The position numbers and the translations under genes are program-made. From Escherichia coli (GTDB taxonomy: Bacteria > Pseudomonadota > Gammaproteobacteria > Enterobacterales > Enterobacteriaceae), in the NCBI RefSeq assembly GCF_044324875.1, contig NZ_CP172185.1: a stretch of DNA of 64,000 nucleotides, one strand, 5' to 3'. Below, one piece after another: positions 44,866 to 49,809 of this stretch. Within the stretch, counting starts at the first letter, position 1; each line of letters starts with the position of its first letter. The notes beneath the pieces are model-generated. The model was not told the DNA's origin and searched no databases. It saw only the letters and a list, made by a program, of their open reading frames with translations.

Positions 44866-45807
44866 ATGTTAGACAATGTTTTAAGAATTGCCACACGCCA
44901 AAGCCCACTTGCACTCTGGCAGGCACACTATGTCAAAGACAAGTTGATGGCGAGCCATCCGGGCCTGGTCGTTGAACTGGTACCGATGGTGACGCGCGGC
45001 GATGTGATTCTTGATACGCCGCTGGCGAAAGTAGGCGGAAAAGGCTTATTTGTAAAAGAGCTGGAAGTCGCGCTCCTCGAAAATCGCGCCGATATCGCCG
45101 TACATTCAATGAAAGATGTGCCGGTTGAATTCCCGCAAGGTCTGGGACTGGTCACTATTTGTGAGCGTGAAGATCCTCGCGATGCCTTTGTGTCCAATAA
45201 CTATGACAGTCTGGATGCGTTACCGGCAGGCAGTATCGTCGGGACGTCCAGTTTACGTCGCCAGTGCCAACTGGCTGAACGCCGCCCGGATCTGATTATC
45301 CGCTCCCTGCGCGGCAACGTCGGCACTCGCCTGAGCAAACTGGATAACGGCGAATACGATGCCATCATTCTTGCCGTAGCCGGACTAAAACGTTTAGGTC
45401 TGGAGTCACGCATTCGCGCCGCGTTGCCACCCGAGATTTCTCTTCCGGCGGTAGGACAAGGTGCGGTGGGCATTGAATGCCGCCTTGATGATACACGCAC
45501 TCGCGAGCTGCTTGCCGCGCTGAATCACCACGAAACTGCACTGCGCGTTACCGCAGAACGCGCCATGAATACCCGTCTCGAAGGCGGATGTCAGGTACCA
45601 ATTGGTAGCTACGCCGAGCTTATTGATGGCGAAATCTGGCTGCGTGCGCTGGTCGGCGCGCCGGACGGTTCGCAGATTATTCGCGGTGAACGCCGCGGTG
45701 CGCCGCAAGATGCCGAACAAATGGGGATTTCGCTGGCAGAAGAGCTACTGAATAACGGCGCGCGCGAGATCCTTGCTGAAGTCTATAACGGAGACGCCCC
45801 GGCATGA
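44866..45807 (+). CDS. hemC: Porphobilinogen deaminase (hydroxymethylbilane synthase)
   Basis: ORF track begins at 44845; known HemC starts [20 protein letters not shown] (313 aa). Confidence 0.9.
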
Positions 45808-46544
45808 GTATCCTGGTCACCCGCCCGTCTCCCGCTGGAGAAGAGTTAGTGAGCCGTCTGCGCACACTGGGGCAGGTGGCCTGGCATTTTCCGCTGATTG
45901 AGTTTTCTCCGGGTCGACAATTACCGCAACTTGCTGATCAACTTGCAGCGCTGGGGGAGAGGGATCTGTTGTTTGCCCTCTCGCAACACGCGGTTGCTTT
46001 TGCCCAATCACAGCTGCATCAGCAAGATCGTAAATGGCCCCGACTACCTGATTATTTCGCCATTGGACGCACCACCGCACTGGCGCTACATACCGTAAGC
46101 GGACAGAAGATTCTCTACCCGCAGGATCGGGAAATCAGCGAAGTCTTGCTACAATTACCTGAATTACAAAATATTGCGGGCAAACGTGCGCTGATATTAC
46201 GTGGCAATGGCGGTCGTGAGCTAATTGGGGATACCCTGACGGCGCGCGGTGCTGAGGTCACTTTTTGTGAATGTTATCAACGATGCGCAATCCATTACGA
46301 TGGTGCAGAAGAAGCGATGCGCTGGCAATCCCGCGAGGTGACGACGGTCGTTGTTACCAGCGGTGAAATGTTGCAGCAACTCTGGTCGCTGATCCCACAA
46401 TGGTATCGTGAGCACTGGTTACTACACTGTCGACTATTGGTCGTCAGTGAGCGTTTGGCGAAACTCGCCCGGGAACTGGGCTGGCAAGACATTAAGGTCG
46501 CCGATAACGCTGACAACGATGCGCTTTTACGGGCATTACAATAA
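45804..46544 (+). CDS. hemD: Uroporphyrinogen-III synthase
   Basis: 246-aa ORF overlapping the hemC stop (ATGA); conserved hemCDXY order. Confidence 0.9.
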
Positions 46545-46565: not shown

Positions 46566-47765
46566 ATGACGGAACAAGAAAAAACCTCCGCCGTGGTTGA
46601 AGAGACCAGGGAGGCCGTGGACACCACGTCACAACCTGTCGCAACAGAAAAAAAGAGTAAGAACAATACCGCATTGATTCTCAGCGCGGTGGCTATTGCT
46701 ATTGCTCTGGCGGCGGGCGTCGGTTTGTATGGCTGGGGTAAACAACAGGCCGTCAATCAGACTGCCACCAGCGATGCCCTGGCTAATCAACTGACGGCAC
46801 TGCAAAAAGCCCAGGAGAGCCAAAAAGCTGAGCTGGAAGGCATTATCAAGCAACAAGCTGTACAGCTTGAGCAGGCGAATCGTCAGCAAGAAACGCTGGC
46901 AAAACAGTTGGATGAAGTCCAACAAAAGGTCGCCACCATTTCCGGCAGCGATGCTAAAACCTGGCTGCTGGCTCAGGCCGATTTTCTGGTGAAACTCGCA
47001 GGACGGAAGCTGTGGAGCGATCAAGACGTCACGACCGCTGCAGCGTTGCTGAAAAGTGCAGATGCCAGCCTGGCGGATATGAATGACCCGAGTCTGATTA
47101 CCGTTCGTCGGGCAATTACCGATGATATCGCCAGCCTTTCTGCGGTATCGCAGGTGGATTATGACGGCATCATCCTGAAGCTCAATCAGCTTTCAAATCA
47201 GGTAGATAACCTGCGTCTGGCCGATAATGACAGCGATGGTTCGCCGATGGATTCCGACGGTGAAGAGCTTTCCAGTTCCATCAGCGAATGGCGTATCAAT
47301 CTGCAAAAAAGCTGGCAGAATTTTATGGACAACTTCATTACGATTTGCCGTCGTGATGACACCGCCGTACCGCTGTTAGCGCCAAATCAGGATATCTATC
47401 TGCGCGAAAATATTCGCTCTCGCCTGCTGGTCGCGGCACAAGCCGTACCGCGTCATCAGGAAGAGACTTATCGCCAGGCGCTGGAGAACGTCTCCACCTG
47501 GGTACGTGCTTACTACGATACTGATGATGCCACCACCAAAGCGTTCCTCGACGAGGTGGACCAGTTAAGCCAGCAAAATATCTCGATGGATCTCCCGGAA
47601 ACCCTGCAAAGCCAGGCGATGCTGGAAAAACTGATGCAGACTCGCGTGCGTAACCTGTTGGCACAACCGGCAGCGGGGACAACGGAAGCTAAACCTGCAC
47701 CTGCACCTGCACCTGCACCTGCACCGCAAGCTGATACTCCGGCAGCCGCGCCGCAAGGAGAATAA
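46566..47765 (+). CDS. hemX: HemX (putative uroporphyrinogen-III C-methyltransferase-like membrane protein)
   Basis: 399-aa ORF with N-terminal TM segment, coiled-coil Q-rich region and C-terminal Pro-Ala repeat. Confidence 0.85.
47693..47722 (+). repeat. Hexanucleotide tandem repeat (cctgca)n within hemX encoding (PA)n
   Basis: aaacctgcacctgcacctgcacctgcaccgcaa: four or more tandem cctgca units encoding [13 protein letters not shown] near the HemX C-terminus. Confidence 0.7.
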
Positions 47766-47767
47766 CC

Positions 47768-48964
47768 ATGCTAAAAGTGTTATTGCTCTTTGTTTTGCTG
47801 ATTGCGGGGATAGTGGTTGGCCCGATGATTGCCGGACACCAGGGTTACGTGCTGATCCAGACCGACAACTACAATATTGAAACCAGCGTCACTGGCCTGG
47901 CGATTATTTTGATTCTGGCAATGGTAGTGCTGTTTGCCATTGAGTGGCTACTGCGGCGGATCTTCCGCACAGGCACACACACCCGTGGGTGGTTTGTCGG
48001 ACGTAAGCGTCGCCGTGCCCGTAAGCAGACCGAACAGGCGCTGCTGAAACTGGCGGAAGGCGATTATCAGCAAGTTGAAAAGCTGATGGCGAAAAATGCC
48101 GATCACGCTGAACAACCGGTGGTGAACTATCTGCTGGCTGCCGAAGCCGCGCAACAACGCGGTGATGAAGCACGCGCCAACCAACATCTGGAACGCGCAG
48201 CGGAGCTGGCCGGCAACGACACAATTCCGGTAGAAATCACCCGTGTACGTCTGCAACTGGCCCGTAATGAAAACCATGCAGCACGTCACGGCGTTGATAA
48301 GCTGCTGGAAGTTACGCCACGCCATCCGGAAGTATTACGTCTGGCGGAACAGGCGTATATCCGCACTGGTGCATGGAGTTCGCTGCTGGATATCATCCCA
48401 TCAATGGCAAAAGCCCACGTTGGCGATGAAGAGCATCGTGCAATGCTGGAACAACAGGCATGGATTGGCCTGATGGATCAGGCGCGTGCCGATAACGGTA
48501 GCGAAGGTTTGCGTAACTGGTGGAAAAACCAAAGCCGGAAAACGCGTCATCAGGTGGCGTTACAGGTGGCAATGGCGGAACATCTTATTGAATGTGACGA
48601 TCATGATACTGCCCAGCAAATTATCATCGACGGCCTGAAACGCCAGTATGACGATCGCCTGCTGCTGCCGATCCCGCGTCTGAAAACCAATAACCCGGAA
48701 CAGCTGGAAAAAGTGCTGCGCCAACAGATCAAAAACGTGGGCGATCGCCCGTTGTTGTGGAGCACACTGGGTCAGTCGCTGATGAAGCACGGCGAATGGC
48801 AGGAAGCATCGCTCGCCTTCCGCGCGGCGCTGAAACAACGTCCGGACGCCTACGATTACGCATGGCTTGCCGACGCGCTGGACAGACTGCACAAGCCGGA
48901 AGAAGCCGCAGCGATGCGTCGCGATGGCTTGATGTTAACGTTGCAGAACAACCCGCCACAGTAA
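47768..48964 (+). CDS. hemY: HemY (TPR-containing membrane protein, protoheme IX biogenesis)
   Basis: 398-aa ORF with N-terminal TM helices; conserved position. Confidence 0.9.
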   Translation: MLKVLLLFVLLIAGIVVGPMIAGHQGYVLIQTDNYNIETSVTGLAIILILAMVVLFAIEWLLRRIFRTGTHTRGWFVGRKRRRARKQTEQALLKLAEGDYQQVEKLMAKNADHAEQPVVNYLLAAEAAQQRGDEARANQHLERAAELAGNDTIPVEITRVRLQLARNENHAARHGVDKLLEVTPRHPEVLRLAEQAYIRTGAWSSLLDIIPSMAKAHVGDEEHRAMLEQQAWIGLMDQARADNGSEGLRNWWKNQSRKTRHQVALQVAMAEHLIECDDHDTAQQIIIDGLKRQYDDRLLLPIPRLKTNNPEQLEKVLRQQIKNVGDRPLLWSTLGQSLMKHGEWQEASLAFRAALKQRPDAYDYAWLADALDRLHKPEEAAAMRRDGLMLTLQNNPPQ

Positions 48965-49004: not shown

Positions 49005-49604
49005 ATGTCAAAATTGCGCACGCCGTCCCGCTATCTTTTTCGCTTGCCATCGCATGAAATTACTCCTTTTCGGGCAACGCTCTTTTTAATCTTGTTGATA
49101 TGTGCCGCTCTGGCTGGCGTAAGTTGGCTGATTATTTCCTTTGTGCGTACGGGCAATACATTCATCTTCTGGTTAACACTTTTTATTGGGTATCTGATAG
49201 CTGCGGCGAAGCAGGAAAAAATCAAGCTCCTCAAGAAGTACCGAATCATGGCAGATAAACGTCGGGGACGCTCCATTTGCCAGTTCGCCCGCGAATTTGA
49301 CACCTACACCGTAGATACATGGGTGATTCGTGCGGTGTGGGATACCTTGCAAGGAAACGGTTATATCGATTACCCACTGCCACTGAAAGCCGATGATATA
49401 CTGGACGATGATCTGGATTTGGTGAGCGACGCAGTCGAGTTAGAAGAGCTGGTTGAAGATACCGCTGCTCGTTGCGGGCGCGATCTATGCGGAATAGAAG
49501 AGAATCCGTTTCTTCCCATCGTCACGGTAGGCTCTCTTGTAAGAGTGTTAAACGCGCAACCGATGACCCAGGAGCGACGTAACCAGTTCTTTATCCGGTC
49601 ATAA
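49005..49604 (+). CDS. Hypothetical protein (up to 199 aa; N-terminal TM segments, acidic C-terminal region); start uncertain
   Basis: Long ORF between the hemY terminator and glmZ. Predicted TM helices (ATLFLILLICAALAGVSWLIISF, FIFWLTLFIGYLIAAA) and an acidic tract (DDILDDDLDLVSDAVELEELVEDTAA). The first ATG abuts the terminator T-run, so a later start (e.g. ATG ~49248) is possible. Not recalled as annotated in K-12. Confidence 0.3.
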   Translation: MSKLRTPSRYLFRLPSHEITPFRATLFLILLICAALAGVSWLIISFVRTGNTFIFWLTLFIGYLIAAAKQEKIKLLKKYRIMADKRRGRSICQFAREFDTYTVDTWVIRAVWDTLQGNGYIDYPLPLKADDILDDDLDLVSDAVELEELVEDTAARCGRDLCGIEENPFLPIVTVGSLVRVLNAQPMTQERRNQFFIRS

Positions 49605-49809
49605 AAAAACGCCTGCTCTTATTACGGAGCAGGCGTTAAAACAGGTCTGTATGACAACAAGTGGGTGCTTCACTCAACGTTGTGTCCATGGTGTCTGATG
49701 AGGCATAAGCGACATCTGTCAGTGGACGATAAGCACCGTAAACGGCTCTGCGTCATTCCGGAGTTTATGAGGCACTAAGGCGAACATAAGAGATGGAATG
49801 AGCATCTAC
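49603..49809 (-). ncRNA. glmZ: GlmZ small regulatory RNA (activator of glmS translation)
   Basis: The reverse complement reads GTAGATGCTCATTCCATCTCTTATGTTCGCCTTAGTGCCTCATAAACTCCGGAATGACGCAGAGCC...ACGCCTGCTCCGTAATAAGAGCAGGCGTTTTTTT, matching my recollection of GlmZ with its terminator hairpin and U-tail; known to lie between hemY and aslA. Confidence 0.8.

Follow-up and report, generated by a model that had tools for sequence, protein, structure and literature searches.

The closest described system is CVN014, which belongs to the generic E. coli MLVA scheme (GECM-7/GECM-10) of Lindstedt et al. 2007. Simple repeats whose copy number changes by slippage at a high rate are also found in the contingency loci of Haemophilus, Neisseria and Campylobacter, and Pro/Ala-rich linkers such as the OmpA hinge, the lipoyl-domain linkers of pyruvate dehydrogenase E2 and the proline-rich spacer of TonB act as extended, flexible or stiff spacers. 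In published typing data, CVN014 has been called "the most polymorphic locus", with a Nei index of 0.83 and a range of 4-15 (PMC3519732), and has been reported to show "the largest variation" among the loci (PMC5217547). Here we analyzed a stretch of E. coli DNA of 64,000 nucleotides (the window) and report that a hexanucleotide array at the 3' end of its hemX gene is this published marker, in use for strain typing since 2007 and already known as a VNTR. In the reading that we consider highly probable, the array would gain and lose whole units by slippage, always in frame, and produce near-neutral variation in the tail of HemX.

The CCTGCA array in hemX and its identity with CVN014

The hemX coding sequence occupies positions 46566-47765 on the plus strand and encodes a protein of 399 amino acids. 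It was assigned from the list of open reading frames, from 97% identity to K-12 HemX (b3803) and from a match to the Pfam HemX family (PF04375; E = 1.5e-107, 359 bits against a gathering cut-off of 25.9, residues 130-363). The gene is preceded by hemD (45804-46544) and followed by hemY (47768-48964, plus strand), the latter identified from the list of open reading frames and from the annotation of matching genes in RefSeq genomes. HemX begins with a short region, one hydrophobic segment at about residues 36-56 and a predicted long helix, and the residues that follow the Pfam domain (364-399) form a tail rich in Pro, Ala, Thr and Gln. According to published papers, HemX is a distant homologue of Mic60 and a conserved two-hybrid partner of YhcB/ZapG.

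The repeat lies within this tail, outside the Pfam domain. Direct reading of the sequence identified five CCTGCA units without a mismatch at 47694-47723 on the plus strand, in agreement with the first-pass annotation, which had described a perfect tandem hexanucleotide repeat in hemX. The interval it had given, 47690-47725, encloses the array but also takes in four flanking bases on the left and a partial unit, CC, on the right. TRF called the repeat at 47693-47725 with a period of 6, 5.5 copies, 100% matches and a score of 66, and this was the only period-6 array with a TRF score of at least 50 in the 64-kb window. The array exceeds chance expectation: the 18-mer (CCTGCA)3 had 0 occurrences in 100 dinucleotide-preserving shuffles of the window. 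It is in frame with the 399-codon reading frame and encodes (Pro-Ala)5, preceded by the residues TTEAK, in the context K376-(PA)5-P387-Q388. The run thus corresponds to HemX residues 377-386 (P377-A386) and lies near the C-terminus, where it had been proposed to encode a Pro-Ala repeat.

The flanks of the array resemble the primers of CVN014. The published CVN014 primers are TCCCCGCAATCAGCAAMACAAAGA (forward) and GCAGCRGGGACAACGGAAGC (reverse), and the repeat number is obtained as (product size - 111)/6 (PMC8143711, Table 1). In the window, the reverse primer has a single exact match at 47670-47689 on the plus strand, and the forward primer has a single exact match at 47787-47810 on the minus strand, inside the start of hemY. 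The two sites delimit a predicted amplicon of 141 bp (47670-47810), for which the formula, (141-111)/6, yields 5, in agreement with the unit count read from the sequence. Because both primers match exactly once and the size formula returns five units, the array is CVN014. Furthermore, the degenerate primer positions R and M fall on SNPs seen among strains. In the open-access literature searched, hemX was not found named as a tandem repeat, MLVA or VNTR locus, CVN014 was neither placed in hemX nor said to encode (Pro-Ala)n, and the sole match for hemX combined with repeat terms was an unrelated Salmonella SNP table.

We then compared the window with K-12 MG1655, whose hemX (b3803) is 1182 bp long, encodes 393 amino acids and carries 2 units. 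The K-12 length of about 393 amino acids given in the first-pass annotation was therefore accurate, and the suggestion that the difference from 399 reflects repeat number proved correct: the alignment of the two hemX genes contains a single 18-bp gap that lies exactly within the array (5 versus 2 units). At the protein level the two are 97% identical apart from a gap of six residues, equal to three repeat units. One record, NZ_CP026085.1, is named 'Escherichia coli strain DH5alpha' and has 5 units, as opposed to 2 in the remaining K-12 derivatives among the matches listed (MG1655 derivatives, XL1-Blue, JB41 and others). This record is 4.83 Mb, compared to 4.54-4.66 Mb for the other K-12 derivative records listed, and because of its larger size, together with the 5 units, its DH5alpha label is possibly wrong.

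Several features near the array were observed in passing. HemX codon 261 (47346-47348) encodes Cys in the window (FITICRRDD) and Arg in K-12 and in all 10 other aligned Enterobacteriaceae (FITIRRRDD); Cys261 is a rare substitution in a part of the HemX domain where Arg residues form a conserved cluster. PGAP labels HemX 'uroporphyrinogen-III C-methyltransferase' in nearly all RefSeq genomes, and the curated K-12 record reads 'PF04375 family protein HemX'. A Pfam search of the HemX protein in the window found no methyltransferase domain, and the enzymatic name may be legacy annotation. Downstream, a 199-codon open reading frame with hydrophobic N-terminal segments (49005-49604, plus strand) lies between the end of hemY (48964) and glmZ (49603-49809, minus strand). 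It fills an insertion of about 560 bp relative to K-12, in which glmZ sits 82 bp after hemY. A Pfam search with this frame gave no match, and its annotation reads 'hypothetical protein'. Of 5,426 complete E. coli genomes, only 689 contain the segment, about 105 of them at 95% identity or more, with 88% identity in ST131 and others; the frame represents an accessory gene at a conserved site.

Allele range and rate of change across E. coli

Among 5,426 complete RefSeq E. coli genomes, hemX was found in 5,425, in which arrays of 0 to 25 units occur. In three evenly spaced samples of ranked matches (39, 59 and 60 genomes), the matched spans differed from the query by multiples of 6 bp only. The strain-variable repeat number that had been proposed for this array, and for which a comparison of hemX across many E. 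coli genomes had been recommended, is thus borne out; unit counts differ among strains. When a synthetic query of 40 units was used to rank the genomes by array length, the longest alleles had 25, 23 and 22 units, followed by 21 in five genomes and 20 in four, and 585 of the 5,425 genomes (11%) had 11 or more.

Among the 60 genomes taken at evenly spaced ranks, one carried 0 units, ten carried 2, two carried 3 and four carried 4. Alleles of 5 and of 6 units were present in nine genomes each, followed by 7 units in six, 8 in five, 9 in four, 10 in three, 11 in three and 12 or more in four. The median of this sample is about 6 units, and the distribution has peaks at 2 and at 5-6 and a long right tail. 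The window allele (5) is one of the two commonest and the K-12 allele (2) falls on the second mode, which consists mostly of laboratory K-12 derivatives among the matches listed. A distribution that is not flat could reflect population structure or selection.

We fetched 20 of these loci and counted units in the sequence, obtaining 19 intact arrays and one allele that lacked the array. The counted arrays had every number of units from 1 to 17, and 25. All 19 were uninterrupted, with nearly invariant flanks, and a wide range of alleles occurs on each of the two flank haplotypes, QADT and QGDT. The hemX reading frame was intact in every allele examined, including those with 0 and 25 units. The one genome among the 20 without an array, NCTC11023 (NZ_LS483297.1, 4600350-4601504), has an in-frame deletion of 27 bp relative to K-12 that removes the whole repeat together with PQADT; its junction, AAACC/GGCAGCC, lies at a short CC microhomology. 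The resulting HemX has 384 amino acids and is otherwise intact. With one unit the protein has 391 amino acids and with 25 units it has 439. The spread of E. coli HemX lengths in databases, from 384 to 439 amino acids, therefore corresponds to repeat variation and not to separate genes.

Four O157:H7 genomes indicate how rapidly the array changes. They carry 5, 11, 13 and 17 units, yet their flanks, about 5.3 kb in total (about 2.65 kb on each side), are separated by 0-1 SNP. Because the counts differ on near-identical flanks, the array changes far faster than point mutation and does so without import of a foreign allele. Variation of CVN014 within ST131 has also been reported in published typing data. 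The arrays are pure, they differ by whole units, and they change fast on the near-identical O157:H7 flanks; for these reasons, slipped-strand mispairing is the mechanism that we would expect to underlie the change in copy number. The first-pass annotation had named this mechanism as one by which such repeats can vary among strains, and the purity of the arrays and the O157:H7 alleles lend it indirect support.

The sequence of the unit points to a feature that could favor such events. Each CCTGCA contains the self-complementary TGCA, and single strands of the array fold into imperfect hairpins. For 5 units the predicted folding energies are -4.1 and -4.9 kcal/mol; for 25 units they reach -31.1 and -37.9 kcal/mol, with z = -8.3 and -3.8, respectively. 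Hairpins that grow with array length could stabilize slipped intermediates. In the model that we favor, replication slippage would add or remove whole 6-bp units, and every resulting allele would stay in frame, such that the only outcome would be a longer or shorter (Pro-Ala)n run within the low-complexity tail at the C-terminus of HemX. Slippage of this kind would neither switch hemX on and off nor shift the ribosome-binding site of hemY, and the length variation that it generates would be near-neutral for the cell.

Alternative readings and the HemX tail

We considered whether the length differences could instead be assembly or sequencing artefacts, or could result from recombinational exchange of whole hemX alleles and not from local slippage. 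Repeats are error-prone in short-read assemblies, and a metagenome-derived HemX of 485 amino acids with an odd internal duplication of 86 residues could be an assembly error. However, the genomes compared here are RefSeq 'complete genome' assemblies, in which arrays of at most 150 bp are presumably shorter than typical reads, and PCR fragment sizing by independent laboratories detects the same polymorphism. The O157:H7 genomes, in which arrays that differ by up to 12 units share the flanks described above, argue against allele import. Collectively, these data make either origin very unlikely. A different proposal treats the repeat as a phase-variable contingency locus, with expression of hemX or hemY turned on and off. 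It shares with known contingency loci a simple-sequence repeat and a high rate of change. However, a change in the number of 6-bp units never shifts the reading frame, and hemX is intact in all alleles examined. We therefore rejected a phase-variation switch. An effect on the translation of hemY was rejected as well, because in all alleles examined the array lies equally far from the ribosome-binding site and the start codon of hemY. We give the switch next to no credence.

A functional role for the length of the run deserves closer attention. In this proposal, (Pro-Ala)n is a stiff spacer whose length is under selection and sets the periplasmic reach of a conserved HemX C-terminus, with optima that differ among lineages. 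Residues P392, A393, P396, Q397, G398 and E399, the last four of which form the terminal …PQGE, do not vary among 11 Enterobacteriaceae sequences, and the segment that precedes them is variable; in addition, published work describes HemX as distantly homologous to Mic60, a membrane-bridging protein. Alleles of 16-25 units are enriched in STEC and livestock isolates among those listed, and the modes at 2 and 5-6 units can be counted in favor of a tuned length. However, conservation at the C-terminus need not mean a protein motif, because the last hemX codons, CAA-GGA-GAA, overlap the putative ribosome-binding site of hemY: a Shine-Dalgarno-like AGGAG lies within them at 47756-47760, 32 nt past the repeat, and an explanation at the level of DNA or RNA suffices. 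Moreover, within the single clone O157:H7 alleles differ threefold on flanks that are nearly identical; the Pro-Ala run is absent from Salmonella, and one E. coli genome has lost the array; and long alleles may be enriched in STEC simply because of lineage. We consider a length-selected spacer unlikely. In its fuller form, the run would be a non-neutral, stiff tether of variable length in the periplasmic tail of HemX, an envelope trait adjustable by slippage in which long alleles are favored in certain niches (for example bovine/STEC), and this we judge decidedly improbable. If it were true, slippage would provide E. coli lineages with a rapidly adjustable envelope trait.

Our preferred reading remains that variation in array length is, most likely, near-neutral, because the repeat lies outside the Pfam domain, the tail varies among genera, and hemX is intact with 0 and with 25 units. 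In Enterobacteriaceae other than E. coli the HemX tail is also rich in Pro and Ala but differs in length and sequence between genera: that of Salmonella has no Pro-Ala run, and those of Citrobacter species have 2-5 PA or (AAP)n. The tail is probably periplasmic and, as judged mainly from its composition, disordered; an AlphaFold2 model of HemX built on a shallow alignment of 11 sequences was poor (mean pLDDT 42.5) and agreed weakly with coil at residues 365-399. The rest of hemX shows purifying selection, the pairwise dN/dS being 0.05-0.3 for sufficiently diverged sequences.

Two further HemX proteins drew our attention. The HemX sequences of C. sedlakii (P0009, P0021/P0025 and P0029) have 394, 397 and 400 amino acids, the 397-residue form being known by its length only. 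The 394- and 400-residue forms are two AAP units apart in the same tail (PAPAAPQ versus PAPAAPAAPAAPQ), which suggests, at the level of protein sequence, that a 9-bp repeat has become polymorphic independently at the corresponding site in another genus. The E. coli-like HemX of 485 residues mentioned above is encoded on an ENA metagenome contig (P0001). Its 86-residue duplication repeats the C-terminal part of the domain, and its repeat is interrupted (PAPAPAPTPAPAPAP); the duplication may be real or may be an assembly artefact around the repeat.

A published scan bears on selection at this gene. In a PAML analysis of 92 wastewater E. coli genomes, hemX was the top positively selected gene, with p = 7.3e-128 and omega = 21.9 (PMC9110714, Sci Rep 2022, Table S1). 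The alignments, as described in that paper, appear not to have been codon-aware. We suspect that the VNTR is involved in this signal, because hemX outside the repeat is under purifying selection. A MAFFT nucleotide alignment of nine alleles, however, contained no spurious substitutions arising from the VNTR and did not reproduce such an artefact; the sole variable column in the repeat region was the real QADT/QGDT SNP. The claim of positive selection on hemX merits re-examination with the repeat masked.

Comparison with known systems

As a discovery the finding is small, since it re-derives from sequence alone a marker that has been used routinely in strain typing since 2007. Its practical value is that CVN014 can be read from assemblies by counting the CCTGCA units near the hemX stop codon, which joins MLVA to genome data. 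The array and CVN014 are the identical locus with the same 6-bp unit, and there is no biological difference between them. The range found here in complete genomes, 0-25 units, is somewhat wider than published ranges, for example 4-15 (PMC3519732).

The contingency loci of Haemophilus, Neisseria and Campylobacter shift the reading frame or the spacing of a promoter, whereas the 6-bp unit in hemX never does. The linkers of OmpA, pyruvate dehydrogenase E2 and TonB are similar to the HemX run in being alternating Pro-Ala or Pro-rich segments of low complexity, but they join two folded domains, whereas the run in HemX lies in a terminal tail with no partner domain after it. Linkers of this type are not known as hypervariable VNTRs. 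The array also resembles other in-frame coding VNTRs used to type enterobacteria, such as the remaining 6-bp loci in the MLVA schemes for E. coli and Salmonella. Like it, these are intragenic, have units that are multiples of three, change by whole units, evolve faster than SNPs and serve as epidemiological markers. Compared to them, the hemX array is unusually pure, with 19 intact arrays free of interruption, and it shows the greatest variability in its scheme.
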